From IMG/VR virus record IMGVR_UViG_3300027971_004105: DNA of 64,000 bases; one strand, written 5' to 3'. The notes under the pieces are model-generated. The model saw only the letters and a program-made list of their open reading frames with translations. It was not told the origin of the DNA and did no database searches. Positions 7,133-24,098 of the stretch are shown in pieces. The position numbers were made by a program, and so were the translations under genes. Position 1 is the first letter of the stretch, and every line of letters begins with the position of its first letter. Origin of the DNA: a virus. Taxonomy: Duplodnaviria; Caudoviricetes.

Positions 7133-7161
7133 TTGACAATTGCGTGATAATCGATTACAAT
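7133..7161 (+). promoter_or_regulatory. sigma70-type promoter
   Basis: TTGACA-17 bp-TACAAT; AAGGAG SD before ATG 7191. Confidence 0.8.
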
Positions 7162-7190
7162 ACAACAATCTAAATCAAAGGAGAAATAAA

Positions 7191-7448
7191 ATGGCAAGAA
7201 CATATGGCCCAGAAGAACAAGCCAAACTGAAAAAAATAGTGGATGAAGGTGTTAATGTGCTTTCAGAAATTGAAGATTTAAGCACAGGTTTGAAAGACAC
7301 TATCAAAGCAGTGGCAGAAGAATTAGAAATTAAACCAGCCATCATCAACAGAGCAATCAAAATTGCTCAAAAAGGTGATTGGAACAAAGTTGCTGAAGAG
7401 TTTGACAATTTAGAAAACTTGGTGATAGCAGTAGGCAAAGACAAGTAA
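7191..7448 (+). CDS. small dsDNA-binding protein (T4 DsbA/GapR-like)
   Basis: 85 aa helical, ...LKDTIKAVAEELEIKPAIINRAIKIA pattern; strong SD. Confidence 0.55.
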   Translation: MARTYGPEEQAKLKKIVDEGVNVLSEIEDLSTGLKDTIKAVAEELEIKPAIINRAIKIAQKGDWNKVAEEFDNLENLVIAVGKDK

Positions 7449-7686: not shown

Positions 7687-7980
7687 ATGAAGTACATCAT
7701 TGACATTGACAACACAATTTGCTATAATAAAGACAGCGATTATGTCAACAGTACACCTGACATCACACGCATAGCCCGAGTTAATCAGTTGTATGATGAT
7801 GGACACGAGATTCATTATTACACAGCAAGAGGTGGCAACTCCGGCAAAGACTGGAGTGAGTTAACTCGTCAACAGTTGACTGAATGGGGGTGCAAATTCC
7901 ATTCAGTAAATTTGGGCAAACCAGTGTATGATGTTTGGGTGGATGACAGAGCAGTAAACGCAAAGGATTTTTTTAAATGA
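7687..7980 (+). CDS. minimal HAD-superfamily phosphatase
   Basis: IIDIDNTIC, YYTARG and GKPVYDVWVDD motifs. Confidence 0.75.
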   Translation: MKYIIDIDNTICYNKDSDYVNSTPDITRIARVNQLYDDGHEIHYYTARGGNSGKDWSELTRQQLTEWGCKFHSVNLGKPVYDVWVDDRAVNAKDFFK

Positions 7981-9035
7981 GAATAGATTATAACATATAT
8001 TTGGATTACGCAGACGTACTATTAAAACCCAAAAGATCCACACTGAGTTCAAGACGTGATGTGGACATGACTAGAGATTTCACATTTCGTAACAGCAAAC
8101 AGCAGATCTCATTTGTGCCTGTGGTTGCCAGCAACATGGATGGTGTGGGCACATTCAGTATGGCCAGAGTATTACAAGAATATAAACTTTTAACTGTGTT
8201 AAGAAAACATTACACCATTGCGGATTGGGACAGAGCAATAGGCACAGGATTAAAATTACAATATGTGAGTGCGTGTACAGGCACAGGAGCCATGTGGGAC
8301 AACAATTCACCAGACTATCAAACTTTAAAAAAAGTTATGGAGAAATATCCAGATGTGAGCATGATTACCATAGATGTGGCCAATGCTTATCATGAACAGT
8401 TTGTGGACTTTGTTAAGAGAATAAGATCTGAATTTCCCGACAAGACCATCATAGCAGGCAATGTGGTATCACCAGAGATGGTGGAAGAATTAATCATCAA
8501 TGGAGCAGACGTGGTCAAAGTGGGCATAGGTCCAGGATCAGTGTGTACCACTCGTACACAAACAGGAGTGGGAGTGCCACAGTTTTCTGCCATCATAGAA
8601 TGTGCTGATGCTGCCAACGGAGTGGGTGGACACATCATTGCTGATGGTGGTTGCACACAGCCAGGAGACATAGCCAAAGCATTGGCTGCAGGTGCTCACA
8701 TGGTGATGTTGGGTGGCATGCTGGCAGCACATGATGAATCAGAATTAGAATTGAAAGATGGCAAAAGAGTATTCTACGGCATGAGTTCCGAATCAGCATT
8801 TGAAAAACACGGCGCAAGAAAAGATGGCTACAGAGGCACTGAAGGCAAAACAGTAAAATTAGACAACAAAGGTCCTGTGAAAGACACTGTGGAACAGATA
8901 TTGGGCGGAGTCAGAAGCACTTGCACTTATATAGGAGCAAGAAGAATCAAAGACATGCCCAAGTGTGCTCACTTCGTGAGAGTGAACAATGTGATCAACA
9001 GAGTTTTTGACAGATATGAAACAAATAAAAATTGA
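7977..9035 (+). CDS. guaC: GMP reductase
   Basis: LDYADVLLKPKRSTL, ASNMDGVG, GIGPGSVCTTR (catalytic Cys), IIADGG, FYGMSS; no CBS domains. Confidence 0.93.
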   Translation: MRIDYNIYLDYADVLLKPKRSTLSSRRDVDMTRDFTFRNSKQQISFVPVVASNMDGVGTFSMARVLQEYKLLTVLRKHYTIADWDRAIGTGLKLQYVSACTGTGAMWDNNSPDYQTLKKVMEKYPDVSMITIDVANAYHEQFVDFVKRIRSEFPDKTIIAGNVVSPEMVEELIINGADVVKVGIGPGSVCTTRTQTGVGVPQFSAIIECADAANGVGGHIIADGGCTQPGDIAKALAAGAHMVMLGGMLAAHDESELELKDGKRVFYGMSSESAFEKHGARKDGYRGTEGKTVKLDNKGPVKDTVEQILGGVRSTCTYIGARRIKDMPKCAHFVRVNNVINRVFDRYETNKN

Positions 9036-9255
9036 TCTAATTCTCAAATGGATAGCCACAGCCATATTGATTGTGGGCACATTTGTTAATGCTGGATTTC
9101 CAGAACTATATCCCGTGGGACCAATACTGTTGGCCTTGGGTGGAGTATTTTGGTTGGTAGTTTCATTGATTTGGCGAGAACCTGCACTGATTGTGACCAA
9201 CATTGTGTTGACATGTGTGGGCTTTGGTGGTATAATACTATATTACATTAGATAA
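9016..9255 (+). CDS. small membrane protein
   Basis: Three hydrophobic segments; ATG 9016 preferred. Confidence 0.65.
   Translation: MKQIKIDLILKWIATAILIVGTFVNAGFPELYPVGPILLALGGVFWLVVSLIWREPALIVTNIVLTCVGFGGIILYYIR
9208..9236 (+). promoter_or_regulatory. consensus sigma70 promoter with extended -10, upstream of polB
   Basis: TTGACA-17 bp-TATAAT with TGn, inside the 3' end of the membrane-protein gene. Confidence 0.85.
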
Positions 9256-9258
9256 GGC

Positions 9259-9307
9259 ATAATCGGCCATAAGCGATTATTTGGTATGTGTCAGCCTTAA
9301 ATGACAC
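9259..9307 (+). promoter_or_regulatory. twin-hairpin 5' leader element of polB (putative translational operator)
   Basis: ATAATCG-GCCATAAG-CGATTAT and GTGTCA-GCCTTAAA-TGACAC; perfect stems, similar 8-nt loops. Confidence 0.7.
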
Positions 9308-9319
9308 GGATTGGAACAT

Positions 9320-11992
9320 ATGAGTTACATAGACGCATTCTTCGATAGAAATCAAGATTTTATTCGTGTGGTAGAACGCAAAGAAGGCAAAAGAATCTAC
9401 AAAGAATATCCCATTAGATACACATTCTTTTATGAAGATGCCAATGGCAAATTCAAAAGCATATATGGCAATTCTCTCAGCAGAATTGTCAGCAAGAGCA
9501 CCAAAGACTTTCATAAAGAATTAGCCATCAATAGAAACAAAAAATTATTTGAATCCGATATCAATCCCATATTTCAATGTCTCAGTGCCAACTACCTCAA
9601 TCACGATGCTCCCAAACTGAATGTGGCATTTTTTGATATAGAAGCAGACTTTGATCCTGAAAAAGGATTCGCTGATCCCTCAGATCCGTTCATGCCAGTC
9701 ACAGCTATCACTGTGTATCTGCAATGGATAGACAGCATGGTGACTTTTGCACTGATTCCTAAAACCTTAACACTTCAACAAGCCAAGGATCAGACCAAAG
9801 ACACAAAGAATTTATATCTGTATGAGCGTGAAGCAGACATGTTGCAGGCATTTTTAGACATAATAGAAGATGTGGATGTGTTGAGCGGTTGGAACTCAGA
9901 AGGTTATGACATGCCTTATCTAGTGAATAGAGTCAGCAAAGTATTGAGTAAAGATGACACTAGACGTTTTTGTTTATGGTCACAGATGCCTAAAAAAAGA
10001 ACATTTGAAAAGTATGGCAGAGAACAAGAAACTTATGATTTAATAGGCAGAGTACACATAGACAGTTTGGAACTGTATAGAAAATATACCTATGAAGAAC
10101 GCCACACATACAGACTGGATGCCATAGGAGAAATTGAATTGGGAGAAACAAAAACTGTGTATGAAGGCACGTTGGATCAACTGTACAACAATGACTTTAA
10201 AACTTTTATAGAATACAACAGACAAGACGTGCAACTGTTGAACAACTTGGATAAAAAACTTAAATTTTTAGATCTCAGCAATGAACTAGCTCATGCCAAC
10301 ACAGTGCTGATGCAGACCACTATGGGTGCTGTGGCAGTGACCGAACAAGCCATCATCAATGAAGCACACAAAAGAGGATTGCAGGTTCCCAATAGACCAC
10401 ACAGATCCGATGAAGAAAACACCACAGCAGCAGGTGCCTATGTGGCATTTCCCAAAAAAGGACTGCATGATTGGATAGGATCCATGGACTTGAATTCACT
10501 GTATCCAAGTGTGATCAGAGCTCTAAACATGGCTCCTGAATGTGTGGTGGGGCAATTGCGTAACACCTACACAGAATCATTTCTACAGGATCAAATAAAT
10601 CTACAAGGCAAATCATTTGCGGCAGCATGGGAGAATAAGTTTGGCAGTTTGGAGTATGAATATGTGATGACTCAAAGACGAGACATGCCTATCACAATAG
10701 ATTGGGAGAATGGTACCACAGAAGAAAAAAGTGGCGCAGAGATTTACAAGATGATATTTGACAGCCACAAGCCCATCATGATCAGTGCCAATGGCACCAT
10801 GTTTACCACAGAGTTTGAAGGTGTGATTCCTGGATTATTAAAAACATGGTATCAAGAAAGAACTGAGATGCAGGCCATGAAAAAGAAAGCACAAAGTGCC
10901 AGCAATCAAGCAGAGATAGAATTTTGGGACAAAAGACAATTGGTTAAAAAAATTAATTTGAACTCACTGTATGGTGCCATACTTAATCCAGGCTGTAGAT
11001 TCTTTGACAAACGCATAGGACAATCAACCACACTCACAGGTAGAACCATCAGCAAACACATGGCAGCAAAAATAAATGAAGTGATCACAGGCACATACGA
11101 TCATTTGGGAGATGCTGTGATATATGGTGATACAGACTCTGCTTATTTCAGTGCTTATAAAGTTTTAAAGAAAGACATTGATGCTGGATTGATTCCATGG
11201 ACCAAAGAGAGTGTGATCAAACTGTATGATCAAGTGGCTGAAGAAGTCAACAACAGTTTTAAAGCATTCATGGGTGAAGCATTTCATTGTCCCAAAACAA
11301 GAGCAGAAGTGATTCAAGCAGGACGTGAATCCATCAGTGAAACAGGATTGTTTATCACTAAAAAAAGATATGCTGTGTTGATATATGAATTGGAAGGCGA
11401 TCGTATGGATGTGAATGGTAAACCAGGCAAGGTAAAAGCCATGGGATTGGATCTTAAACGTTCAGACACTCCGGTGTTTGTGCAGGATTTTTTAAGTGAA
11501 ATATTACTGATGGTGCTGACCAAATCAGACGAAAAAGCAGTATTGGAAAGAATCAGCACATTTAGAAATGAATTTAAATTGCGTCCAGGTTGGGAAAAAG
11601 GTTCTCCCAAACGTGCCAACAATGTGGCAGATTATCAAAGAAAAGAAAAAGCACAAGGCAAAGCCAACATGCCAGGACACGTGCGAGCTTCAATCAATTG
11701 GAACACATTAAAACGTATGAACAATGATCGTTACAGTTTGGAAATTGTGGATGGCATGAAAGTGATTGTGTGTAAACTCAGAAACAATCCTTTGGAGTAC
11801 ACCAGTGTGGCCTATCCCACAGATCAATTGAGAATACCTCAATGGTTTAAAGAATTACCTTTTGATCACTCAGCCATGGAAACCACAGTGATCGATAGTA
11901 AATTGGGCAACCTGTTGGGAGTGCTGGATTGGGATATTCAAAGCACAGAAACAGGCAACACATTCAACACATTATTTGACTTTGGAGATTAA
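9320..11992 (+). CDS. polB: family B DNA polymerase (T4 gp43-like)
   Basis: Exo motifs FDIEADF, GWNSEGYD, YNRQDV; Pol motifs DLNSLYPS, KINLNSLYG, YGDTDS; no intein. Confidence 0.97.
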   Translation: MSYIDAFFDRNQDFIRVVERKEGKRIYKEYPIRYTFFYEDANGKFKSIYGNSLSRIVSKSTKDFHKELAINRNKKLFESDINPIFQCLSANYLNHDAPKLNVAFFDIEADFDPEKGFADPSDPFMPVTAITVYLQWIDSMVTFALIPKTLTLQQAKDQTKDTKNLYLYEREADMLQAFLDIIEDVDVLSGWNSEGYDMPYLVNRVSKVLSKDDTRRFCLWSQMPKKRTFEKYGREQETYDLIGRVHIDSLELYRKYTYEERHTYRLDAIGEIELGETKTVYEGTLDQLYNNDFKTFIEYNRQDVQLLNNLDKKLKFLDLSNELAHANTVLMQTTMGAVAVTEQAIINEAHKRGLQVPNRPHRSDEENTTAAGAYVAFPKKGLHDWIGSMDLNSLYPSVIRALNMAPECVVGQLRNTYTESFLQDQINLQGKSFAAAWENKFGSLEYEYVMTQRRDMPITIDWENGTTEEKSGAEIYKMIFDSHKPIMISANGTMFTTEFEGVIPGLLKTWYQERTEMQAMKKKAQSASNQAEIEFWDKRQLVKKINLNSLYGAILNPGCRFFDKRIGQSTTLTGRTISKHMAAKINEVITGTYDHLGDAVIYGDTDSAYFSAYKVLKKDIDAGLIPWTKESVIKLYDQVAEEVNNSFKAFMGEAFHCPKTRAEVIQAGRESISETGLFITKKRYAVLIYELEGDRMDVNGKPGKVKAMGLDLKRSDTPVFVQDFLSEILLMVLTKSDEKAVLERISTFRNEFKLRPGWEKGSPKRANNVADYQRKEKAQGKANMPGHVRASINWNTLKRMNNDRYSLEIVDGMKVIVCKLRNNPLEYTSVAYPTDQLRIPQWFKELPFDHSAMETTVIDSKLGNLLGVLDWDIQSTETGNTFNTLFDFGD

Positions 11993-12532
11993 ATGGCAAG
12001 ATACGGCATGGTAGATTTGGAAACATTAGGCACAAGACCAGATGCTGCCATATTGACTGTGGGTGCTATCAAGTTTGATCCACATTCAGACTCAGAACCC
12101 TACGAAGGTAGATATTGGAGATTAAATGTAGATGAACAAACAGCATTGGGTAGAACAGTGGACGAAGGTACCATTGAATGGTGGGGCCGACAGGCACCTG
12201 AGATACGTGATGAGGCATTGGGAGACACAGATCGTGTGATCATAGCAGACTTTGCCAAAGAATTCAACAAATGGTGTGTGGGATTGGATCAGCTGTGGTG
12301 TCAAGGTCCATTGTTTGATTATGCCATCATACAAAATTTATATGACCAAGCTCGCACTCCTGTGCCTTTCAACTATTGGCAAATCAGAGACAGTCGCACA
12401 CTGTTTGATTTGATGCCACAGGATCCTAGAAAGAGCATACAGAGCAGTCTACACAACGCATTGGCTGATTGTTACTATCAAGCCAAATGTGTGCAACAAG
12501 TTTTTAAACATTTAGGAGTAAAGAAAAAATGA
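11993..12532 (+). CDS. DEDDh 3'-5' exonuclease (Rv2179c-like)
   Basis: MVDLETLGT, WCQGPLFD, IRDSRT, HNALADC. Confidence 0.85.
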   Translation: MARYGMVDLETLGTRPDAAILTVGAIKFDPHSDSEPYEGRYWRLNVDEQTALGRTVDEGTIEWWGRQAPEIRDEALGDTDRVIIADFAKEFNKWCVGLDQLWCQGPLFDYAIIQNLYDQARTPVPFNYWQIRDSRTLFDLMPQDPRKSIQSSLHNALADCYYQAKCVQQVFKHLGVKKK

Positions 12533-13260
12533 AAATATTATTGACAGGACATCTAGGGTTTATAGGCAGTGCTTTGTACAATGAACTGATCAAAGAACAC
12601 ACAGTGATAGGCATAGACATCAAAGATGGCAAAGATTTATTAACTTGTGATTTGAATTACACAGTGGATCTTGTGATACATTTGGCAGGATTGGCACAAG
12701 TAAGAGAGAGTTTAAAAAATCCTACCAAGTATTGGGACATAAATGTGATAGCATCTAAAAGATTATTTGATGCATTTCCTCATACAAAAATAATATATGC
12801 CAGTTCTAGTTCAGCATACGAACCAGAAAAAAATCCTTATGCTTTTAGTAAATTTGCCATGGATAAGATTGCTCCAGCACACAGTTTAGGTTTAAGATTT
12901 ACCACTGTATGGTGTGAAGGCGGTAGAGATGGTATGTTTATGACCAAACTATTTGAGAATGACATCAGTTATATCACTGAGCATACTAGAGATTTTGTAC
13001 ATGTGTCTGACATAATATCTGCAATCAAATTATTAATGAACACTTCAATAACAGGAGTGATAGATGTGGGTACCGGAATCAGCAACAATTTGAAAACTTT
13101 GGTAGATTTGGCTGGCATTAAAAATTATAAGTTTGAATCTGGCAATGTATATGAAAGAATGGACAACTGTGCCAATATCAAAGAATTAAGAGATTTAGGT
13201 TGGGAACCAAAAGTTAATGTGATTGATTACATAAAAAACAAATATCACTTGACTTCTTAG
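12529..13260 (+). CDS. NAD-dependent epimerase/dehydratase
   Basis: TGHLGFIG, YASSSSAY, YAFSK (YxxxK). Confidence 0.88.
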   Translation: MKILLTGHLGFIGSALYNELIKEHTVIGIDIKDGKDLLTCDLNYTVDLVIHLAGLAQVRESLKNPTKYWDINVIASKRLFDAFPHTKIIYASSSSAYEPEKNPYAFSKFAMDKIAPAHSLGLRFTTVWCEGGRDGMFMTKLFENDISYITEHTRDFVHVSDIISAIKLLMNTSITGVIDVGTGISNNLKTLVDLAGIKNYKFESGNVYERMDNCANIKELRDLGWEPKVNVIDYIKNKYHLTS

Positions 13261-13277
13261 CCAGGCCTAAATATAAT
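13249..13277 (+). promoter_or_regulatory. sigma70-type promoter overlapping a late TAAATA core
   Basis: TTGACT-17 bp-TATAAT; TAAATA 13268-13273; GGAG SD. Confidence 0.75.
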
Positions 13278-13301
13278 GCATATAACACAACGGAGAACAA
13301 A

Positions 13302-14030
13302 ATGAAAGACATCTTACAAGACGTGGTAGCACACACTCATCAACTGGGGTTTTTGAGTCTAGTGAAAGTTACCAATGAAGAACAAACTAAAATTGAAAGC
13401 ATGGCTGAAGACAGATCAGTTATTCTTTCAGCAACAACCAACAAAAAAGTATCTGAATTTACAGGTACATTTGGTATGCCTAACTTGGACAAACTATCAT
13501 TACACTTGAAATGTCCTGAGTATCAAAAAGACGCCAAATTAAATGTGGTCAAAGCCACACGCAATGGAGTGGAAATTCCCACACACATTCACTTTGAAAA
13601 TGCATCGGGTGATTTCCAAAATGATTACAGATTTATGAACACTGAGATTATCAATGAAAAATTGAAATCAATCAAATTCAAAGGTACATCTTGGAACATT
13701 GAATTTGAACCAGCTCTTGCTAGTATTCAAAGATTAAAACTGCAAGCGGCAGCACACACAGAAGAAACTGTTTTCACAGTTAAAACTGAAAATAAAAATT
13801 TAATGTTTTACTTTGGTGATGCAAACTCTCATGCAGGAAGTTTTACTTTTCAAGCCAATGTGGTAGGTGAATTAAAACAAGGTTGGAGTTGGCCTATTCA
13901 ACAAGTGATTAGTATATTAAATCTTGATGGCAAAATCAAAATGAAGATTAGTGATCAAGGTGCTATGCAAATTTCTGTGGATAGCGGTATTGCTGAATAC
14001 AATTACATATTGCCAGCACAGACCAAATAA
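13302..14030 (+). CDS. probable DNA polymerase sliding clamp (gp45-like)
   Basis: 242 aa with a clamp-like alpha/beta pattern, near polB; no catalytic motif, so inferred. Confidence 0.55.
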   Translation: MKDILQDVVAHTHQLGFLSLVKVTNEEQTKIESMAEDRSVILSATTNKKVSEFTGTFGMPNLDKLSLHLKCPEYQKDAKLNVVKATRNGVEIPTHIHFENASGDFQNDYRFMNTEIINEKLKSIKFKGTSWNIEFEPALASIQRLKLQAAAHTEETVFTVKTENKNLMFYFGDANSHAGSFTFQANVVGELKQGWSWPIQQVISILNLDGKIKMKISDQGAMQISVDSGIAEYNYILPAQTK

Positions 14031-14048
14031 ATTAAGGCAAGTAAAATT

Positions 14049-15512
14049 ATGCACACTGACTTAACAGCACAGCAAAAAGACTATTCAGTATTTCTGCCGG
14101 CGTTGAGCAGTTTCTATGCAAGAGATTTGGGCAAGGCCAGACATGAGAAGGATTATATCCTGCCTCACAGAATTCCGGCTGCTTTTAATCATGGCATAGA
14201 AGGCATGAATTATCTTGTGCCCACCAACACATATTTTCATTACAGATGGCATTTGTACAGTGCAGGTCATGCTGACTTGAACATGGACAAATTTAGTGCC
14301 AGAGATGACATCATAAGAAACCGAGATAGAAAAACCAGTTTTGTACTGGGTGATTCAGGAGGGTTTCAGATTGGTAAAGGAGTATGGGAAGGCAATTGGA
14401 AAGATCCCACTTGTCCTCGAGCCAAGAAGAAGCGAGAACAGGTGCTCACTTGGATGGATGCCAACATGGACTATGGTATGATATTGGATATTCCAGCATG
14501 GGTTTCACGTTCTCCAGAAGGTGCCAAAGCCAGCAATATCAACTCCTATCAGGAAGCAGTGGATGGCACAAGAATCAATAATGATTACTTCATGAAGACT
14601 AGAACAGGTGCTTGTAAGTTTTTAAATGTGCTGCAAGGTGAAAACTTTCAACAAGCAGATGATTGGTATCAGCAGATGAAAGATTACTGCGATCCTAAAA
14701 AATATCCCACAACTCACTTTAATGGTTGGGCAATGGGTGGTCAGAACATGTGTGATGTGCATCTTATATTGAAAAGATTAGTGGCATTAAGATTTGATGG
14801 TTTATTAGAAAAAGGCATTCATGATTGGATGCACTTTTTAGGCACATCCAAACTGGAATGGGCAGTACTATTGACAGACATCCAAAGAGCAGTAAGAAAA
14901 TATCACAATCCAAACTTTACTGTGTCATTTGATTGTGCTTCACCTTTCTTAGCATCAGCCAATGGACAAATTTACACAGAAGTGGATGTCAGAGACAAAC
15001 AAAAATGGTCATATAGAATGGCTGCCAGCATAGATGATAAAAAATATGCCGGTGACACCAGAGCATTTAGAGATGCTGTGTTACAAGAAAAGATATTTGA
15101 CAATTTTCAAGACAGTCCTATCAGTAAAAGATTACAGTTGAAAGATGTCACTTGTTATGCTCCAGGAGATAAAAACAAAGTGGGCGGTGATCCCAAAACA
15201 TCTTGGGATTCATTCAGTTATACCTTACAAATGGCACACAATGTTTGGACACACATCAATGCTGTGCAAGAAGCCAACAGACAGTATGATGCAGGATTAA
15301 CTCCACGCATGTTGGTGGAAGAAAAGTTTGATAAAGTGGCATTCAAAGACATAGTGGAAGCAATATTTGCCACAGACAACAGAGACACAGCAGAAGCAGT
15401 GATTGAGGAATACAGCAGATTTTGGATGAGTATCATAGGTACCAGAGGCGCCACAGGCAAAAAAACAGTGAATGCTTCAACACAGTTTTCTAACTTATTT
15501 GAGGAGGTATAA
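14049..15512 (+). CDS. TGT-fold guanine transglycosylase (DpdA/Tgt-like)
   Basis: GDSGGFQ, MILDIP, NVLQG, AMGG, HFLG, SFDCASP align with TGT active-site motifs. Confidence 0.85.
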   Translation: MHTDLTAQQKDYSVFLPALSSFYARDLGKARHEKDYILPHRIPAAFNHGIEGMNYLVPTNTYFHYRWHLYSAGHADLNMDKFSARDDIIRNRDRKTSFVLGDSGGFQIGKGVWEGNWKDPTCPRAKKKREQVLTWMDANMDYGMILDIPAWVSRSPEGAKASNINSYQEAVDGTRINNDYFMKTRTGACKFLNVLQGENFQQADDWYQQMKDYCDPKKYPTTHFNGWAMGGQNMCDVHLILKRLVALRFDGLLEKGIHDWMHFLGTSKLEWAVLLTDIQRAVRKYHNPNFTVSFDCASPFLASANGQIYTEVDVRDKQKWSYRMAASIDDKKYAGDTRAFRDAVLQEKIFDNFQDSPISKRLQLKDVTCYAPGDKNKVGGDPKTSWDSFSYTLQMAHNVWTHINAVQEANRQYDAGLTPRMLVEEKFDKVAFKDIVEAIFATDNRDTAEAVIEEYSRFWMSIIGTRGATGKKTVNASTQFSNLFEEV

Positions 15513-15513
15513 T

Positions 15514-15708
15514 ATGAGTAAGAAAAATAAAAGTTTAAAGAAATTAGAACATGAGTTTGATTACTATCATAGAAAAACTGAAGAAATGGAACAAGAGCGA
15601 GAACATGATAGAAGTTGGGAGAGTAAAGCATTATTAAAGAATTATAAGAAAATTAAACTGGCAATCAAAACACAGATAGAAGAATACAGAAAACAATTAA
15701 AAGCATGA
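15514..15708 (+). CDS. small coiled-coil hypothetical protein
   Basis: GAGGAGGT SD before ATG 15514. Confidence 0.7.
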   Translation: MSKKNKSLKKLEHEFDYYHRKTEEMEQEREHDRSWESKALLKNYKKIKLAIKTQIEEYRKQLKA

Positions 15709-16592
15709 AAACATTGGTTATAGGATTGGGTATTGGACAATTGTATGTTAGAGTCTTAACACAGTTGGGTCATACAGTATTCACAGTGGATCCTGATCAA
15801 AACAAACAAGCCACATTCACAAATTTAAAAACAGCTCTATTGGCTCATCCCAAATTGGATGCAGTGTTCATATGCACTCCTAATTATACACATGATTCAA
15901 TAGCTCAAACAGTTGCACCACACAGTAGAGTGGTATTTGTAGAAAAACCAGGAGTGCTTAATTCTAAAAGATGGCAGAGTCTTCAACTCACATATCCAAA
16001 CGCTAAATTTATCATGATGAAAAACAATATGTGGCGCACAGTGGAAGAAGAAATGCGTATTAGAATAGATGATGCTGAAGAAGTACACATTAACTGGATC
16101 AATCGCAACAGAGTGCCAGCACCAGGCAGCTGGTTTACTGATAAGAAATTATCATTTGGTGGAGTCAGCAGAGATCTTATGCCACATTTATTGAGTATGT
16201 TCATCTGGTTGAATCCTGATACATATTCTCAATATCAAATAGTTTCTTCCAATCGTAAACAAAATTGGAAATTAAGTGATCTTACTGATACAGAATATGG
16301 TGCAGTAAATTTAGATGGCACATATGATGTGGATGATTGGGCTGAAATGGTGTTCAATAACGGTAAAAAAACATTCAAACTTACTGCTGATTGGCGCAGT
16401 ATGGACAAAGATGACAGAGCACTGCACTGTTATAAAAGAGAAAAATTAATTAAAAGTTTTGAACTAGGATTATGTCCTGAATCAGCTTATGCTGCAATGA
16501 TTCAAGATGTTTTCAATAATATTAACCATGAAGAGTTTTGGAATCAACACAAGCAGTATGATGTGTGGATTCATAATTTAATCAATGACTGA
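15705..16592 (+). CDS. Gfo/Idh/MocA-family oxidoreductase
   Basis: IGLGIG Rossmann motif, ICTPNYTH, VEKP. Confidence 0.85.
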   Translation: MKTLVIGLGIGQLYVRVLTQLGHTVFTVDPDQNKQATFTNLKTALLAHPKLDAVFICTPNYTHDSIAQTVAPHSRVVFVEKPGVLNSKRWQSLQLTYPNAKFIMMKNNMWRTVEEEMRIRIDDAEEVHINWINRNRVPAPGSWFTDKKLSFGGVSRDLMPHLLSMFIWLNPDTYSQYQIVSSNRKQNWKLSDLTDTEYGAVNLDGTYDVDDWAEMVFNNGKKTFKLTADWRSMDKDDRALHCYKREKLIKSFELGLCPESAYAAMIQDVFNNINHEEFWNQHKQYDVWIHNLIND

Positions 16593-17493
16593 AACTAAAC
16601 TGTTATACACCAAAGGAGATGGCATGTTTCATGAAGGAACCATTGACATTCCTGCAGTGAAAGATAATCAGATTCAAGTAAAAAATATCATGACAGGAGT
16701 ATGTCGCAGTGATGTGGACATGATGTTGGGCAAATTCAAAACATTACCATTAAACATGCAAGGTCATGAAGGATTGGCTCAGGTCACACAAGTGGGTGCT
16801 CATGTGCGAGATGTTCAGGTGGGAGATCATGTGGCTACCAGAGGTGAACCTGCTTATGCTGATATTTACAATTGTGATTTTGAAACTTATGTTAAAGTTC
16901 CCACAGCAGATCCCAAATACATTGTGGAACCTGTGGCATGTGGCATTAATGTGATCAAACAATTTGAAACTGCCATTGCTCACAAAGCCAACTACAACAG
17001 CAGACTGCTGCTGATAGGCAGTGGATTTTTATCCTATGTGGTTTACACCTATCTAAAAATAAAAAATTATCATTTTGATATCACTGTGTTGGGCAATCAC
17101 AACAAACAGTTTTGGGGAGATAAACTCACTCACAATGCTGAAGGCGTGTTTGATGTTATTATAGATTTGAACAACAGATCAGAGGTGTTTGACAAGAACA
17201 TGTTCAACACTGAAGCATTGTTGATACTGGCTGCTGAAAAAACAGAATCTATTCGCACTAATTTTGCTGATTTATTATGGAATGCTGTAACAGTAGGCTT
17301 TCCAAGTCCTAGAAATAAAAAATTTATAGAGTGCATGCGTGAAGCAGTGGAATTAATCTCTGCAGGCAAACTAGATGTGTCCAATTTTTGGACCAAAGGT
17401 TACAGCAGAAGCACAGAGTGGAACAATGCATTTGCAGATGCTACAAATAGAAAAAATGGCTATGCCAGAGGGTATATAGATTGGAGAAAATAA
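16585..17493 (+). CDS. Zn-dependent medium-chain dehydrogenase/reductase
   Basis: GVCRSD, GHEG, VEPVACG, IGSGF. Confidence 0.85.
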   Translation: MTETKLLYTKGDGMFHEGTIDIPAVKDNQIQVKNIMTGVCRSDVDMMLGKFKTLPLNMQGHEGLAQVTQVGAHVRDVQVGDHVATRGEPAYADIYNCDFETYVKVPTADPKYIVEPVACGINVIKQFETAIAHKANYNSRLLLIGSGFLSYVVYTYLKIKNYHFDITVLGNHNKQFWGDKLTHNAEGVFDVIIDLNNRSEVFDKNMFNTEALLILAAEKTESIRTNFADLLWNAVTVGFPSPRNKKFIECMREAVELISAGKLDVSNFWTKGYSRSTEWNNAFADATNRKNGYARGYIDWRK

Positions 17494-18014
17494 TGTTGGA
17501 CACACAATCGAGAAAAAAAGTAAAATTTTTCATAGGCAAAGAAGTGGAGAACACTGCTATGAAACATCAAATAACTTTATTTGTGGTGGGTGTACAAAAC
17601 GTGGTGGACATTGTGAGGTATACTCAAAAAACTGCTGTGGCACACGTGTATTTAGGCACCAGTCAAAGTTTTACTCCAGAGACAGAAGAAGATTGGAGAG
17701 ATTGGAACAATATTATTAACAAATTATTAGATTTGGGTCTTTGGGTCACATTGGATTATGATGTGCAATATGCAGAAATGGTATCAAGAATGAATTGGCA
17801 TAAGAACCATCATTTTATCAATATGATATCTGTGAAAATACCCAACATCAAAACATTCAACTCAAACACAGTGATCAAACTGGATGACGTCACGTGGGGT
17901 GCTACCAATACAGGAGTTTGGACACATGATTTGGACAAATTGATGACCAAAAAAACCTATACAGATTGGAGTGAATACAAGGGCGATTATCCTGTGGACA
18001 TTGACAAGCATTGA
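17493..18014 (+). CDS. conserved hypothetical protein
   Basis: TAATG coupling; FFIGKEVENT...TLFVVG and WGATNTGVW motifs. Confidence 0.7.
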   Translation: MLDTQSRKKVKFFIGKEVENTAMKHQITLFVVGVQNVVDIVRYTQKTAVAHVYLGTSQSFTPETEEDWRDWNNIINKLLDLGLWVTLDYDVQYAEMVSRMNWHKNHHFINMISVKIPNIKTFNSNTVIKLDDVTWGATNTGVWTHDLDKLMTKKTYTDWSEYKGDYPVDIDKH

Positions 18015-18029
18015 AAAGGTTGTTATACT
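18001..18029 (+). promoter_or_regulatory. sigma70 promoter with extended -10, followed by late core TAAATA (18037-18042)
   Basis: TTGACA-17 bp-TATACT with TGn. Confidence 0.8.
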
Positions 18030-18051
18030 ATAAACCTAAATACTGAAACAC

Positions 18052-18453
18052 ATGAGCATTATGAAATCTAAAATTTGGGTAACATTTCGCAGAGAAGGCA
18101 CGCACAAATATCCTGCAGCATTAACAGATCCAAAATTAAAAACTGGTGACGAATATGATGTGAGTTTTTTGGGTTATCCTCACAGACACATATTTCATTT
18201 TCGAGTGGCTATTGAAGTATTTCATGATGACCGAGACATTGAGTTTATACAGTTTAAAAGATGGTTGGAAAACTTATATGGCAAAGGCACATTAGAGTTG
18301 GATTATAAAAGTTGTGAAATGATTGGCGCTGATCTTTATCAACAGATCAATTCAAGATATCCCAATAGAGAAGTCACAATAGACGTGAGCGAAGATGGTG
18401 AGAACGGTGCCACAATGACGTGGGCAGCCAATTCATCCATAACAATCAACTAG
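18052..18453 (+). CDS. QueD-like T-fold protein (DpdL-type)
   Basis: LGYPHRHIF = LxxxHRHxF in place of QueD CxxxHGH; DIEFIQFKRWL, SCEMI. Confidence 0.75.
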   Translation: MSIMKSKIWVTFRREGTHKYPAALTDPKLKTGDEYDVSFLGYPHRHIFHFRVAIEVFHDDRDIEFIQFKRWLENLYGKGTLELDYKSCEMIGADLYQQINSRYPNREVTIDVSEDGENGATMTWAANSSITIN

Positions 18454-18461
18454 GGCGGGCC

Positions 18462-19553
18462 ATGAAGATTTACATTGTGGATCTAGAAGAAGTAGAAACT
18501 AGATATACCAAACAATGGAAAAAATATCTACCCATTCAATTAAAAAGACACACCAATAATGAAATCCAAGTGATCAGCGGAGGAGATGCTGTGAAAAGTA
18601 CCACCCCGGGTGCTTTTTTAAACTTTGGATTCACCAACATGTACAAAAGCAGACAATTAGAACAGATTGCTGAAATGTTCTGTGCGGGAGATATCAAAGA
18701 TGGTGATTATTTCTTATACACTGATGCTTGGAATCCCACAGTACTGCAACTCAAGTACATGGCAGAATTATTAAATGTAAAAATTAAAATAGGTGGCATG
18801 TGGCACGCAGGATCATATGATCCACAAGACTTTTTGGGCAGACTGATAGGTGATAAACCTTGGGTGCGTCTGGCTGAACGCAGCATGTTTGAATCATTTG
18901 ATCACAATTACTTTGCCACTGATTTTCATATTGATATGTTCTTACACAATTTGATGGATCTAGGCAGACTGGCTGACAAAGAAACAGTAGCAGAAATGTT
19001 TCACACAGGCAAAATAGTGAGATCGGGATGGCCTATGGAATATTTGGATGCTGACTTGACTGGTTATAAAAATATTGAAAAAAAGAATATTATTCTTTTC
19101 CCGCATAGATTGGCTCCGGAAAAACAACACAACATATTTCAAGATTTGGCAAAAGAAATGCCACAGTATGAATTTGTCACTTGTTTGGATCGTTGCCAGT
19201 CAAAAAATGACTATCACAATCTTTTAGCAGAAGCCAAATTGATTTTCAGTGCTAATTTACAAGAAACATTAGGAATCAGTTGGTATGAAGGTGCAGTATT
19301 AGGAGTTATTCCAATGATTCCTGATCGTTTAAGTTACAAAGAAATGGCTCAAGAAGAATTCAAATATCCTTCGGAATGGACAGAATCTTTTGAACTGTAT
19401 AAGAAACACAAAGATTTGTTAAAAGCAAGAATAGATGACTACATGATCAACTACAAAAAGTATGCTCCATTGGTACACAAACAAAAAATATCATTGGCAG
19501 AAAACTTTTTTAGTGGCAAACAACTTTACCAAAGGATTACAAATGGAAAATAA
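18462..19553 (+). CDS. GT-B fold glycosyltransferase (GT4-like)
   Basis: FPHRLAPEKQ and QETLGISWYEG (EX7E-like); ATG 18462. Confidence 0.8.
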   Translation: MKIYIVDLEEVETRYTKQWKKYLPIQLKRHTNNEIQVISGGDAVKSTTPGAFLNFGFTNMYKSRQLEQIAEMFCAGDIKDGDYFLYTDAWNPTVLQLKYMAELLNVKIKIGGMWHAGSYDPQDFLGRLIGDKPWVRLAERSMFESFDHNYFATDFHIDMFLHNLMDLGRLADKETVAEMFHTGKIVRSGWPMEYLDADLTGYKNIEKKNIILFPHRLAPEKQHNIFQDLAKEMPQYEFVTCLDRCQSKNDYHNLLAEAKLIFSANLQETLGISWYEGAVLGVIPMIPDRLSYKEMAQEEFKYPSEWTESFELYKKHKDLLKARIDDYMINYKKYAPLVHKQKISLAENFFSGKQLYQRITNGK

Positions 19554-19914
19554 AACTTTAGAACAAAATCAACCAGACAGCACAACGTATAAAGTAGATA
19601 TAAACTATCAAGCAAATGTGGGCACAAATAACATTGTGGCCAGCACAGTGAGCGTGCCATATGGATTTGGTGGATCAGGCAATGGTGTTACTACCACAGG
19701 CATAGATTTTGAAGCAGATGCAATGAAAGGTATAAACTTTGAGGATTACAAACTGCCTATTATGTTTGAGGATATCATGCCTGAAATGCACAAAATAAAA
19801 GAAATGTGTGAGTTGTATCCGTCATTGGATATTGCTTTTCAAAAATTTAAAAATGTTTACAATATTGTGATAGATGATTATGACAATAAAATGCAACTGA
19901 AAATGCCTTTTTAA
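19543..19914 (+). CDS. hypothetical protein
   Basis: ATG 19543 overlaps GT end; C-terminal YPSLDIAFQKFKNVY motif. Confidence 0.6.
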   Translation: MENKTLEQNQPDSTTYKVDINYQANVGTNNIVASTVSVPYGFGGSGNGVTTTGIDFEADAMKGINFEDYKLPIMFEDIMPEMHKIKEMCELYPSLDIAFQKFKNVYNIVIDDYDNKMQLKMPF

Positions 19915-19915
19915 T

Positions 19916-20371
19916 ATGGAAACAGCCAATAAAAATTATTTTACCATGATCCAGATGCGTGCAGCTCTGCTGAATATACATCAGCAATTGACTGAACAAC
20001 AATGGCAACCTCAGGTAATATTAGGATTAAACAGAGGAGGATGTATTCCTGCTATCTATTTGTCACACAAATTGGATGTTCCTCATCATGTGTTAAATGT
20101 AAGTTTACGAGATCATGCTGATACTCCTGATTTACACACATTGGAAAAAGTATATGCTTGGCAAAAAAGAGTATTGATAGTGGATGATATCAATGATACA
20201 GGTGCCACATTTAATTATATTATGAATAACTTTGGCAAACCAGAAAGATTAAAGTTTGCTGTGATATTGCACAACACAGTGAGCACCTACAAAGATATAG
20301 ATTACAAAGGTTATGAAATCAACAAACTGGAAGATCCACGTTGGATAGTGTTTCCTTGGGAGCAATGGTAG
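19916..20371 (+). CDS. type I phosphoribosyltransferase (purine PRT-like)
   Basis: LGLNRGG and LIVDDINDTGAT PRPP-binding loop; WIVFPWE. Confidence 0.9.
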   Translation: METANKNYFTMIQMRAALLNIHQQLTEQQWQPQVILGLNRGGCIPAIYLSHKLDVPHHVLNVSLRDHADTPDLHTLEKVYAWQKRVLIVDDINDTGATFNYIMNNFGKPERLKFAVILHNTVSTYKDIDYKGYEINKLEDPRWIVFPWEQW

Positions 20372-20372
20372 T

Positions 20373-20750
20373 ATGGAAAAAATTGACACTTTGAATCAAG
20401 CTCAAAAAGAAGGCAGAACTCCTTGGACCAAAGTGATATATGATTTGAAAGATTGTGTGTGGTATGAGGATGGATATCCTGTGACAGAAGGACATGCATT
20501 GTTGGTACCCAAACAAGCCAGTCAAAATATGATTGTGAAATGTTTTGAATTAGCATTGAAAATTGGCAATGAAAATATTGCCAAAGGGTTGATTGACGGC
20601 TACAACATAGGTATCAACATGGGCGAGGCAGCAGGTCAAACTGTTCCTTATCCGCATGTTCATTTGATTCCAAGACGCAAGGGTGACATGGAAGATCCTA
20701 GGGGTGGTGTGCGTCATGTGATCCCTCACAAAGGAAATTATAAAAAATGA
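20373..20750 (+). CDS. HIT-family hydrolase
   Basis: GHALLVPK, AAGQTVPYPHVHLIPR. Confidence 0.88.
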   Translation: MEKIDTLNQAQKEGRTPWTKVIYDLKDCVWYEDGYPVTEGHALLVPKQASQNMIVKCFELALKIGNENIAKGLIDGYNIGINMGEAAGQTVPYPHVHLIPRRKGDMEDPRGGVRHVIPHKGNYKK

Positions 20751-21574
20751 GCAGAGCACTTTTCATAGGAGACAGTCACACTTGTGGATATGTCACTGTG
20801 CCTAACAAAACAGGTCCAGGCAGTTATACCTATTGGAATGATAACAACTATGCTGAAATTTACAACACAGTGAACGATAAACCCGTGAGTATCTATGCAC
20901 ATGCTGGAACAACTAATAGAATGTACACTGATTGGATGAAACACATGTTTAACACATTTCCAGACACCGATGAAGTTTTTCTTTGTTTGGCTCCATTGAA
21001 TAGATTTGTGTTGGCTTTTGATGAGAAACTCACAGATGAAGCACTGCCTTTGGATTATTTTGTGCATGAATGTGTGGAAAGCACACCCACAGTAAAAAAG
21101 TATATGGATCTATTGGTCAAAGAAGGCAGAGTGCAATTGTACAACAAACCCACAGCAGAAGATTATGAAAAGTTTCCAGGTTTAAAAATTTCTGAAACAG
21201 ATGGATTGCAACAACCAGACGTAAGAAAAAACACATTTATGGAGATAAAATTATTTTTTGAATTGAACACACATTTGGAAAGACGTGATTTTTTATTGAA
21301 TGTGTTTGCTTGGGATAGAATCTGTGCTGAAAACAATGCCAAACTTTATGTGTTTAATTTTATGAATAGATTGAAATGGCCCAAGAGTTTGGAATATTAC
21401 GGTGCATTAAAAAATACCACAGTAGCAGAAAAAACTGTTGAGCAATATATGTTGGACAATGGTATTGATCCTCAAAAATATTTGCTGCATGACAAAGAAC
21501 ATTACAATACAGAATATCACAAAACGATTGTGGAAAAATACATACCATGGATAAAAAATCAAAAAAAATCCTAA
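20747..21574 (+). CDS. SGNH/GDSL-like hypothetical protein
   Basis: FIGDSHT block I and C-terminal DKEH (DxxH). Confidence 0.55.
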   Translation: MSRALFIGDSHTCGYVTVPNKTGPGSYTYWNDNNYAEIYNTVNDKPVSIYAHAGTTNRMYTDWMKHMFNTFPDTDEVFLCLAPLNRFVLAFDEKLTDEALPLDYFVHECVESTPTVKKYMDLLVKEGRVQLYNKPTAEDYEKFPGLKISETDGLQQPDVRKNTFMEIKLFFELNTHLERRDFLLNVFAWDRICAENNAKLYVFNFMNRLKWPKSLEYYGALKNTTVAEKTVEQYMLDNGIDPQKYLLHDKEHYNTEYHKTIVEKYIPWIKNQKKS

Positions 21575-22164
21575 TCATTGGTGATAGTTTTGCTTGTGAG
21601 TGGCCCAATGGCCTTGCTGGATGGCCCGCTCAGTTGGCTCAACAACATGATGTGACCAATTTGGCTCAGGCAGGTGTGGGCGAATATAAAATATTAAGAC
21701 AACTGCTAAACTTTACCAAAGAAAATCCTTGGTGGCAGCATGACTATGATTGTGTGATTGTGTGTCATACCAGTCCCAGCAGAGTACACACTCCCGTTCA
21801 TCCCATACACAAACAAGGACTGCACAAAGATTGTGATCTCATATGGAATGACATTGAATCTCGCAACAGTTGGTTCAATAAAAGTTTAGACACTGCTAAA
21901 AATTGGTTCAAGTATCACTATGATGATCAATACCAAAAAGACATCTACAGATTGATACGCAGAGATATCAACAGAAAACTGGAGCAAATCACCAGTTTAC
22001 ACATAGATAATTTTGGTATCAGTAACCATTTTGTTGAGGAACAGAATCTGTTGGACTTCAGTATGATCTGGCCTAACTACAGAGGAGAAATTAATCATTA
22101 CAATGATGAAGGAAACCAAATTGTTTTGGCACAAATCATTGACAAACTGGAACAAATCTGTTAA
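21547..22164 (+). CDS. SGNH/GDSL-like hypothetical protein
   Basis: IIGDSFA, NLAQAGVG and C-terminal INHY. Confidence 0.55.
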   Translation: MDKKSKKILIIGDSFACEWPNGLAGWPAQLAQQHDVTNLAQAGVGEYKILRQLLNFTKENPWWQHDYDCVIVCHTSPSRVHTPVHPIHKQGLHKDCDLIWNDIESRNSWFNKSLDTAKNWFKYHYDDQYQKDIYRLIRRDINRKLEQITSLHIDNFGISNHFVEEQNLLDFSMIWPNYRGEINHYNDEGNQIVLAQIIDKLEQIC

Positions 22165-22167
22165 AAT
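22139..22167 (+). promoter_or_regulatory. sigma70 promoter with extended -10, upstream of folE
   Basis: TTGACA-17 bp-TAAAAT with TGn; AAGGAG SD. Confidence 0.78.
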
Positions 22168-22187
22168 AATACAATATAAGGAGTATA

Positions 22188-22874
22188 ATGAAAGTATCAG
22201 AAAAGATTAAACAAAGACTGATTGCGGCTGGCGTGAACTATCATGCTGATGACAATATTTCAGCCTACATCGAAAAAGATGAATTGTCTCTGCTGGAACA
22301 AGAATTAACAGAATCATTCCGATCTGTGCTAAACAGTCTTGTGATTGATACTGACAATGATCCTAATAGTAAAAACACAGCACATAGATTGGCCAAAATG
22401 TATTTGACAGAAATCATGAGCGGAAGATATGAATCTAGACCCGATGCCACAGCATTTCCCAATGTGGGAGGAAATGCTTACACAGGCATGTTGGTGGTGC
22501 GTAGTGAATTAAAATCTATCTGCAGTCATCATCATCAACCAGTGAGCGGTGTGGCGTATATTGGAATCATACCCAATGGCAAAGTGATAGGATTGAGCAA
22601 ATACACAAGAATAGCACAATGGTGTGCTAGAAGAGGCACACTGCAAGAGTCTTTGTGCAATGACATAGCACATGAAATTGAAATGGCCACTGGCAGCAGA
22701 AACATAGGTGTTTACATACAAGCCACACATGGCTGTTGTGAAAACCGAGGCATAATGGCACACAGTTCATTGACTCAGACCACTGTGTTAAAAGGTGCTT
22801 TCAAAGATGATGCTGGCACTAAAAAAGAATTTATGGATAATATTAACCTGCAACAACAATTTGCACCAAGATAG
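22188..22874 (+). CDS. folE: GTP cyclohydrolase I
   Basis: SICSHHH, IGLSKYTRI, RGTLQE, HGCCENRG. Confidence 0.95.
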   Translation: MKVSEKIKQRLIAAGVNYHADDNISAYIEKDELSLLEQELTESFRSVLNSLVIDTDNDPNSKNTAHRLAKMYLTEIMSGRYESRPDATAFPNVGGNAYTGMLVVRSELKSICSHHHQPVSGVAYIGIIPNGKVIGLSKYTRIAQWCARRGTLQESLCNDIAHEIEMATGSRNIGVYIQATHGCCENRGIMAHSSLTQTTVLKGAFKDDAGTKKEFMDNINLQQQFAPR

Positions 22875-22883
22875 GAGACACAG

Positions 22884-23087
22884 ATGACCAATAAAGAAGG
22901 ACCATTTTACGCAGCATTCGGAGGTGATACCACAGGTATTATCAAACAAGAATTAATCACTTACAAAGTTAAAGATGGTGTGCTGTACAAAGAAACAGTG
23001 AAGAGAGATTATCACAGCCAAGGAGATTACATTGATTCATGTGAGTCAATTCCTTTGAAAGAAAACAAACATGAACATACAGCCTAA
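22884..23087 (+). CDS. hypothetical protein
   Basis: GGAG SD; 67 aa. Confidence 0.65.
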   Translation: MTNKEGPFYAAFGGDTTGIIKQELITYKVKDGVLYKETVKRDYHSQGDYIDSCESIPLKENKHEHTA

Positions 23088-23238
23088 AGACACCAGTAAA
23101 GGTCATTTCTATGTGTCACTAATCAAGAGTGCATTTAGAATCATTGCAGGCATTAGTTTAATATTTGGTAACTTTATTACTGCTGGATTTTTATTCATAC
23201 TGGCAGAATTATTAGGAGTGGTAGAGGAATTAGTATAA
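23071..23238 (+). CDS. small membrane protein, 55 aa, absent from the ORF track
   Basis: Hand translation MNIQPKDTSKGHFYVSLIKSAFRIIAG...LAELLGVVEELV*; TAATG coupling to queE. Confidence 0.7.
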   Translation: MNIQPKDTSKGHFYVSLIKSAFRIIAGISLIFGNFITAGFLFILAELLGVVEELV

Positions 23239-24098
23239 TGAGCAAAATTAAAATAGCAGAATTATTTTACAGCATACAAGGAGAAGGCAGGTACATGGGT
23301 GTGCCTTCAGTGTTCTTGAGAACATTTGGCTGCAACTTTACTTGTGCTGGCTTTGGTTTGCCTCGAGGCATGCGTAGTGATGAGAATGACAAAGTATTTG
23401 AACAGCACAAACAATTTCCTTTTAAAAGCTATGAAGAATTGCCATTGGTGAACACAGGCTGTGATTCGTATGCATCTTGGGATCCTCGATTCAAAGATTT
23501 ATCTCCCATGCTGACATCAGATGCTATTGTGGAAAGAACAATGGAAATATTGCCACACAAACAATGGGTGGATGAACATTTTATATTCACAGGCGGTGAA
23601 CCATTGCTGGGTTGGCAACGTGCTTATCCAGATGTATTGGAACATGCAAAGATGCAGGCTTTAAAAGAGATCACTTTTGAAACCAATGGCACACAAAAAC
23701 TACACAAAGATTTTAAAGATTATTTGACTCAATGGAATCAGAAGAATGGTAGAACTAAAGAATCCATATCATTCTCTGTGAGTGCAAAATTAAGTGTGAG
23801 CGGAGAAAAACGTGAAGAAGCTATACTGCCTGAAGTGGTGGCAGAATATGGAGATGTAGGGCATGTGTATTTGAAATTTGTGGTGGCCACCAAGGAAGAT
23901 GCTGATGAGGCATTCCAAGCAGTGGCTGATTATCGTAAAGCAGGATTCTCGGGATCAGTTTATTTGATGCCTGTGGGTGGAGTAGAAAGTGTCTATCATA
24001 TGAACAATAGAACAGTGGCAGAACTGGCAATGAAGATGGGATATAGATACAGTGATAGATTACAGGTGCCATTGTTTAAAAACGCATGGGGTACATAA
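23238..24098 (+). CDS. queE: 7-carboxy-7-deazaguanine synthase (radical SAM)
   Basis: ELFYSIQGEG, FLRTFGCNFTC...GCDS, FTGGEPLL, FETNGT, SVSAK, RLQ. Confidence 0.92.
   Translation: MSKIKIAELFYSIQGEGRYMGVPSVFLRTFGCNFTCAGFGLPRGMRSDENDKVFEQHKQFPFKSYEELPLVNTGCDSYASWDPRFKDLSPMLTSDAIVERTMEILPHKQWVDEHFIFTGGEPLLGWQRAYPDVLEHAKMQALKEITFETNGTQKLHKDFKDYLTQWNQKNGRTKESISFSVSAKLSVSGEKREEAILPEVVAEYGDVGHVYLKFVVATKEDADEAFQAVADYRKAGFSGSVYLMPVGGVESVYHMNNRTVAELAMKMGYRYSDRLQVPLFKNAWGT

Follow-up and report, generated by a model that had tools for sequence, protein, structure and literature searches.

A conserved twin-hairpin RNA element in the polB leader of uncultured jumbo phages, probably a translational operator

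The DNA polymerases (gp43) of the phages T4, RB69 and RB49 repress their own translation through a hairpin in the leader of their message, in whose 8-nt loop the letters UAAC or UAAA, or CAAC in a variant obtained by systematic evolution of ligands by exponential enrichment (SELEX), are of importance (PMC3014915). In the leader of T4 gene 32, a 5′ pseudoknot nucleates the binding of gp32, and translation is repressed in a protein-mediated manner (PMC3014915). When the T4 gene 43 leader was read here, a -10 box was found, then a 5-bp stem with the loop AAUAACUC that ends at -19, and then AAGGA. To our knowledge, autogenous control of a replicative DNA polymerase via its own message is known from the T4-type coliphages only, and we know of no structure of a T4-type polymerase–operator complex. 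Here, we describe a leader element in front of polB, a polymerase gene of the same family, in a virus of the Caudoviricetes (IMG/VR record IMGVR_UViG_3300027971_004105). The analysed stretch comprises 64,000 nucleotides and is called the window below. The element consists of two small hairpins with matching loops, for which a first-pass annotation had proposed a protein-recognised RNA motif, possibly a tandem polymerase operator. Comparison with related phages revealed that the twin-hairpin leader is a real, conserved cis-acting RNA element of the polB message, and it most likely serves as a translational operator of the polB operon.

The first-pass annotation had placed the hairpins behind a consensus extended -10 promoter. 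In a promoter scan of positions 8000-12600, the site at 9208-9236 matched at 12 of 12 positions and carried the TG in addition, and no second such site was detected in this interval. The promoter is contained in the final codons of an open reading frame (ORF; 9016-9255) for a 79-aa membrane protein with DUF6552, and transcription would start near 9243-9245. Between the stop codon of this ORF and the start of polB lie 64 nt. Both perfect stems (7 and 6 bp) with their 8-nt loops could be read in the sequence as described, the loops being GCCATAAG (9266-9273) and GCCTTAAA (9294-9301) in DNA letters. The stem of hairpin 2 reaches 7 bp if U9287.G9308 is counted, and 12 nt (9308-9319) separate this hairpin from the polB start codon ATG 9320. 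In the subclade of the window the ribosome-binding region has no canonical GGAG and contains GGA triplets only. Hairpins with a GCC-N2-3-AA-R loop occur at these two places only in the 64-kb window. The single-sequence fold of the leader was unremarkable, with a minimum free energy of -15.3 kcal/mol and a z-score of -0.34. Since the fold energy is not special, the case for the element rests on comparison.

Therefore, related leaders were collected in two independent samples. The first came from a polB-seeded search of viral contigs and comprised at least 80 loci with PolB identities of 69-99%, from which 37 distinct leaders were aligned blind to structure. The second was seeded with the most divergent PolB at hand (L126, 64.6% identical). 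The pattern used for counting hairpins in the leaders covered GCCNNAAA loops as well. Most leaders of the first sample retain both hairpins. In the alignment, 84.9% of the cells were paired, compared with 69.5% in shuffles; 12 of the 13 stem pairs vary on both sides, and both-sided changes among relatives were seen for all pairs of hairpin 1. The covariation score was 0.462 against 0.200 in shuffles, and none of 500 shuffles scored as high. As a control, the pairing partner was slid by 1-3 columns, upon which pairing fell to 26-47%. RNAalifold, run on the alignment of the relatives, returned the same two hairpins. In the second sample, the twin element was present in 49 of 50 distinct leaders among the matches listed, with a pairing of 92.6% (73.9% shuffled) and a covariation score of 0.557 (0.202 shuffled) that was reached by 0 of 500 shuffles. 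Covariation on related polB leaders, which the first-pass annotation had suggested as a check, is thus strong in both samples, and the loops are conserved. The similar loops on unrelated stems are one conserved RNA motif, as the stems covary and the loop letters GCC..AA are invariant. Pooling of the samples gave 107 distinct leaders: 86 have two strict GCC-loop hairpins, 5 more are twins with a bulged distal stem, 7 contain a single unit and 9 have no unit directly before polB. In total, approximately 150 related phage contigs keep the twin hairpins. The stems of the pooled leaders contain 43 G.U pairs, which shows that the sense strand is the folding strand. Structure and conservation of the element, and its action as sense-strand RNA, are therefore directly supported.

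The single-unit leaders (L026, L027 and L071; L041, L070 and L076; L040) carry a different upstream hairpin approximately 60 nt before polB. This hairpin is a GGCAAUUGCC palindrome in some of them and a hairpin with a CUUAAG loop in others, and a conserved GUAGAAGGU follows it.

The aligned units share a simple layout: GGY, 1-3 nt, a stem of 4-8 bp with free sequence, the loop GCC-N-N-A-A-N and the return stem. For the loop, the first-pass annotation had given the consensus GCCWTAAR. The shared GCC..AA was recovered, while the consensus as a whole turned out to be too narrow, the relatives giving GCC-A-Y-AA-N for the distal and GCC-N-N-AA-R for the proximal loop. The letters GCC, the AA at loop positions 6-7 and the GG are invariant in about 180 units, over a range in which the stems change freely and PolB diverges by about 35%. 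GGY precedes the loop by 6-9 nt in 97 of 98 distal or single units (6-7 nt in the distal ones), and 62 of the 86 proximal units have a spacing of 8 nt. A sole natural variant of the 5′ element was seen: in L281 (about 1116-1188), TGT replaces GGT before unit 1. A sequencing error could account for it, or else the change may be tolerated; the near-identical leaders L280 and L283 retain GGT.

The spacing of GGY and GCC fits the geometry of an H-type pseudoknot with a 3-bp first helix, no spacer between stem and GCC, and an A-rich crossing strand of 5 nt. Each unit may thus fold as a 3-bp GGY:GCC pseudoknot; in unit 1 of the window, GGC 9256-9258 would be the partner of 9266-9268. The third pair is the only one that varies, with C or U opposite G, a change that is compatible with pairing. 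As GG and CC never change, the pseudoknot lies beyond the reach of covariation. Two other arrangements were considered. Kissing of the two loops was ruled out because the loops are not complementary, and sequestration of the Shine-Dalgarno sequence by the loops was ruled out because most loops contain no CCU.

We next turn to the position of the element, which is directly supported as well. The distance from the end of the proximal stem to the start codon is 9-16 nt (mode 11-12) in 97 of 98 leaders, and in most clades other than that of the window an AGGAG follows immediately 3′ of hairpin 2. Several relatives have a gene inserted between leader and polB. In L023, L051, L059, L072-75 and L153 this gene encodes a 2OG-Fe(II)-oxygenase-like protein of 202-206 aa, of which there are two kinds, and in L142 and L144 the insert is a Cys-rich ORF of 57-61 aa, with 61 aa in L144. 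With such an inserted first gene, the motif adjoins the Shine-Dalgarno sequence of that gene. Thus, the element goes with the ribosome-binding site of whichever gene comes first in the polB operon. The stop codon of the insert overlaps the polB start in L023, L072 and L144, which suggests translational coupling under the same leader; the insert of L051 lies 12 nt upstream.

The promoter behaves differently from the RNA. Relatives retain a -10 element upstream of the motif, either within the ORF or in intergenic DNA, and it differs in kind and in distance, the -10 box being located 5-6 nt or 18-19 nt before GG. As promoter type and spacing vary and the RNA does not, these data point to an action on RNA and not on transcription initiation. 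In one subclade (L237, L249, L253, L270, L283 and others), the first GG is preceded, at a distance of 5-6 nt, by a perfect TATAAT, so that in these phages the message probably begins with this GG, the possible pairing partner of the loop. Other leaders have an ATAAATA or ATAAGTA box, which resembles a T4 late promoter. Twin hairpins just behind a strong early-type promoter are reminiscent of the put sites of phage HK022, and the element might accordingly be imagined as a put- or nut-like antitermination signal, or else as the terminator of the upstream gene. We consider an effect at the level of transcription highly improbable. The terminator scan of 8000-12600 found no intrinsic terminator at the leader, the stems are AU-rich, and neither hairpin is followed by a U-run. 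In addition, a fixed distance of 9-16 nt to the start codon, kept even where a first cistron is inserted, would be unexpected for antitermination.

For the first sample, losses of the element were traced along a PolB tree. Both halves of this tree contain leaders with the element, and three independent losses were identified (L043, L052/54 and L066/68). L066, the sister of the twin-bearing L078, shows a clean deletion of the leader, as a result of which the upstream stop codon and the polB ATG overlap. The second sample contains a leader without the element that is common to L257 and L262. A clean loss in relatives indicates that the element is dispensable, as a regulator would be. These observations bear on the possibility that the structure works without any effector, the two compact 5′ folds protecting the polB message from 5′-end-dependent decay or fixing a moderate loading of ribosomes. 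Such a role would agree with the location of the element at or near the 5′ end of the transcript, including the subclade whose RNA probably starts with GG, and if the pseudoknot forms, the fold alone could account for the invariant letters. It is nevertheless an unlikely explanation, for a protective hairpin needs no fixed loop, and here 7-8 unpaired letters are frozen in both units over some 35% of PolB divergence, with stems that covary freely; stabilisation does not require a tight Shine-Dalgarno spacing either, and three clean losses within the first sample speak against it.

The specificity of the motif was analysed with a covariance model of one unit (R1). Searched against the window, R1 found hairpin 1 with 32.7 bits (E 3.5e-7) and hairpin 2 with 19.7 bits (E 0.004), and these two leader copies were the only ones; the runner-up reached 12.8 bits (E 0.5). 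In ten further related element-bearing records, R1 likewise recovered polB-leader copies only, and on the motif-less 145-kb record G004 it gave no match. Among the searched relatives is G007, the record of L144, a complete genome of 372,016 bp that carries direct repeats at its termini and is rated 100% complete by CheckV. There, the runner-up scored 17.1 bits (E 0.15); it has no GGY and is located in a coding region. Uniqueness in the genome is thus directly supported. G007 may also be used as the complete reference genome for this uncultured jumbo-phage clade. As an approach blind to polB, viral contigs were scanned for the motif alone with a loose twin pattern, and stemless chance matches were removed by a stem test. 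Approximately 37 true twins remained, each of them heading a polB operon.

Outside this clade, no copy was detected in the places searched. An Rfam scan had been proposed in the first-pass annotation; cmscan of positions 8500-10000 against Rfam 15, with E-values up to 10, reported nothing in 9240-9320, so that no family matches the element. In the named jumbo phages Phosso, Atu_ph07 and Vibrio phage 2.275.O, the motif is missing from the polB leader. A narrow-pattern scan of bacterial and archaeal genomes from 185,579 species yielded 13 chance matches only, all of them stemless. In the literature, we did not find a description of a twin-hairpin element of this kind. As far as sequence searches reach, the element is uncatalogued and phage-specific.

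The same searches weigh on a further explanation, a phage-only riboswitch made of tandem mini-pseudoknots. Here, each unit (GGY:GCC plus an A-minor strand) would be stabilised by a ligand and would tune the synthesis of the polymerase. The units have the size of preQ1-I or guanidine-II aptamers and combine an invariant core with free stems. The ligand would be a nucleotide-type metabolite, such as a dNTP or one of the 7-deazapurine precursors that the downstream genes would produce, a proposal to which we give little credence; it draws on FolE and a radical-SAM enzyme that are encoded downstream of polB on the same strand. FolE was used as the marker of these downstream genes because the TGT family of Pfam was silent even in a close relative. 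Lineages without the motif still have FolE downstream of polB, however, and the absence of Rfam matches even at E-values up to 10 and the stemless chance matches in bacteria and archaea also argue against a riboswitch. Moreover, the Shine-Dalgarno sequence lies outside the conserved fold, neither alignment revealed a conserved alternative helix or expression platform, and a binding pocket could draw on few letters beyond the 3-bp helix and the two adenines. A riboswitch is therefore quite improbable.

We consider a translational operator of the polB operon to be the most likely function of the element. In the proposed mechanism, a trans-acting factor would recognise the invariant letters GG, GCC and AA, possibly held in a small H-type pseudoknot. 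Bound beside the ribosome-binding site, the factor would block the 30S subunit and thereby restrict how much of the first cistron in the polB operon is translated. Two sites might allow cooperative or tighter control. By analogy to the autogenous repression of T4 gene 43, the polymerase itself is the most likely factor, and we name PolB as the leading candidate binder, a tentative assignment. A single-copy, gene-specific site, together with polB as the one constant gene behind it, makes autogenous control the simplest explanation. The first-pass annotation had compared the locus to the T4 gp43 operator. This holds for the gp43-family polymerase and for a polB-specific site at the ribosome-binding site, and it does not hold for descent, as judged from R1.

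Several points weigh against this interpretation. PolB is a monomer, for which two sites have no obvious need. When residues that are otherwise invariant were inspected in the PolBs of motif-less lineages, neither an excess of changes nor convergent change was observed. The T4 operator is non-homologous, R1 failing to match the T4 leader, and some T4-related polymerases do not autoregulate (PMC3014915). The Shine-Dalgarno sequence is weak in the subclade of the window, which makes occlusion less clear-cut there. An element that is gene-specific and single-copy would be just as compatible with a riboswitch or with a structural role that needs no effector, and the test of uniqueness covered one complete genome.

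The binder of a translational operator could also be another protein. It might be an RNA-binding repressor that the phage makes for this purpose, perhaps as a dimer, a further gene product of the polB operon, or a factor of the host. All that was found on structure, position and invariance would fit such a protein just as well, and two like sites suit a dimeric binder, as in the thrS operator of Escherichia coli. A site that occurs once per genome would, on the other hand, be unusual for a general regulator such as RegA; a search with the RegA family of Pfam gave no match in five related records, and none in the control genomes either. The 86-aa protein encoded upstream of polB was considered as well. 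It is present in motif-less relatives and also in the Sinorhizobium phage Phosso, where it is annotated as 'DNA binding protein', and in Vibrio phage 2.275.O. Its occurrence does not track the motif, and it was rejected as the binder because it occurs where the motif is absent. Altogether, we regard an operator for a protein other than PolB as improbable.

The closest solved relatives of the PolB encoded in the window are the polymerases of RB69 and T4 (RB69 gp43, E 3e-60). Among named phages, the jumbo phages Phosso, Atu_ph07 and Rak2-like phages are closest by PolB, with 42-48% identity, and megablast against named phages gave no near-identical match. The features of the locus, its neighbouring genes and the inserts of the relatives are listed in the following table.

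Table. Coordinates of the leader features, of neighbouring genes in the window and of inserted genes in related loci.
Feature	Position	Strand	Details
Sigma-70-type promoter	9208-9236	+	TTGACA 9208-9213, 17-nt spacer, extended -10 TGgTATAAT 9228-9236
GGC, 5′ element of unit 1	9256-9258	+	Right behind stop TAA 9253-9255; 7 nt 5′ of loop GCC
Hairpin 1 (distal unit)	9259-9280	+	7-bp stem 9259-9265/9274-9280; 8-nt loop GCCAUAAG 9266-9273
GGU, 5′ element of unit 2	9283-9285	+	Inside conserved UGGUAU; 8 nt before loop GCC 9294-9296
Hairpin 2 (proximal unit)	9287-9308	+	6-bp stem 9288-9293/9302-9307; 8-nt loop GCCUUAAA 9294-9301
Ribosome-binding region and start codon	9308-9322	+	GGA at 9308-9310 and 9313-9315; ATG 9320-9322
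polB, family B DNA polymerase of T4/RB69 gp43 type	9320-11992	+	890 aa; PF00136, PF03104
Small helical protein, about 86 aa	7197-7445		ORF 7140-7448; motif GxEEKAKL...; conserved upstream of polB across the clade
GMP-reductase/IMPDH-family gene	7977-9035		Overlaps start of DUF6552 ORF 9016-9255
Genes after polB	11993-24098	polB strand	DEDD exonuclease (Rv2179c-like), NAD epimerase, GFO/IDH/MocA oxidoreductase
Further genes after polB	11993-24098	polB strand	Zn-dehydrogenase-like gene, phosphoribosyltransferase
GTP cyclohydrolase I (FolE)	22188-22874	polB strand
Radical-SAM enzyme	23238-24098	polB strand
Insert of L023	2393-3001
Insert of L072	2396-3004
Insert of L051	1699-2319
Insert of L144	2042-2260	minus strand

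The element is widespread in uncultured aquatic giant phages and probably sets the amount of polymerase that is made. It seems that an RNA solution has evolved here a second time, and independently, within one polymerase gene family, and the element is a candidate for a new entry in RNA family catalogues like Rfam. Roughly eight letters per unit are fixed and make up a very small and well-delimited recognition core, and the stems exist in many natural variants; the element is therefore easily testable and suits structural work. If the binder were other than PolB, the element would lead to a new phage RNA-binding regulator or to a new minimal aptamer.

RegA-type regulons have many unstructured, AU-rich targets per genome, in contrast to the structured element at one locus per genome described here. 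The guanidine-II riboswitch (mini-ykkC) consists of tandem hairpins with identical conserved loops, and the preQ1-I riboswitch of a hairpin with a pseudoknot helix of 3-4 bp and an A-rich strand. The units at polB are likewise very small and aptamer-sized. They differ from these riboswitches in that their loops lack self-complementarity, that the short helix would be formed with the 5′ flank and not with a 3′ tail, and that the fold does not include the Shine-Dalgarno sequence; moreover, Rfam gave no match, and the narrow-pattern scan revealed no copy in bacteria. The thrS operator of E. coli has two anticodon-like hairpins, to which the dimeric ThrRS binds in competition with the 30S subunit. 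Two hairpins with matching loops upstream of the ribosome-binding site are common to thrS and polB, whereas tRNA mimicry is not seen at polB. With T4 gene 32, the element shares the leader of a replication gene and a small 5′ pseudoknot, which is a possible one here. In gene 32, however, a long distance separates the pseudoknot from the ribosome-binding site, and the repression extends along unstructured RNA, which is coated cooperatively; the units at polB adjoin the ribosome-binding site, and gene and sequence are different.

A further close counterpart is the gene 43 operator of T4, RB69 and RB49, and the T4 leader strikingly resembles the present one in its layout. As R1 does not match the T4 leader, the element is to be seen as an analogue of the T4 operator and not as its relative. 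Two units are present here and one in T4, and the loop is GCC-NN-AA-N instead of AAUAACUC. A GGY is conserved on the 5′ side, with a possible pseudoknot, while in T4 determinants are situated on the 3′ side of the hairpin. The end of the proximal hairpin is at -10 to -17 compared with -19 in T4. The protein-binding site of the T4 operator covers the ribosome-binding site; the proximal hairpin described here adjoins the Shine-Dalgarno sequence. In both cases, however, the leader of a gp43-family polB with a sigma-70-type promoter shortly upstream carries, once per genome and near the Shine-Dalgarno sequence, a short stem with an 8-nt loop and a YAA core.

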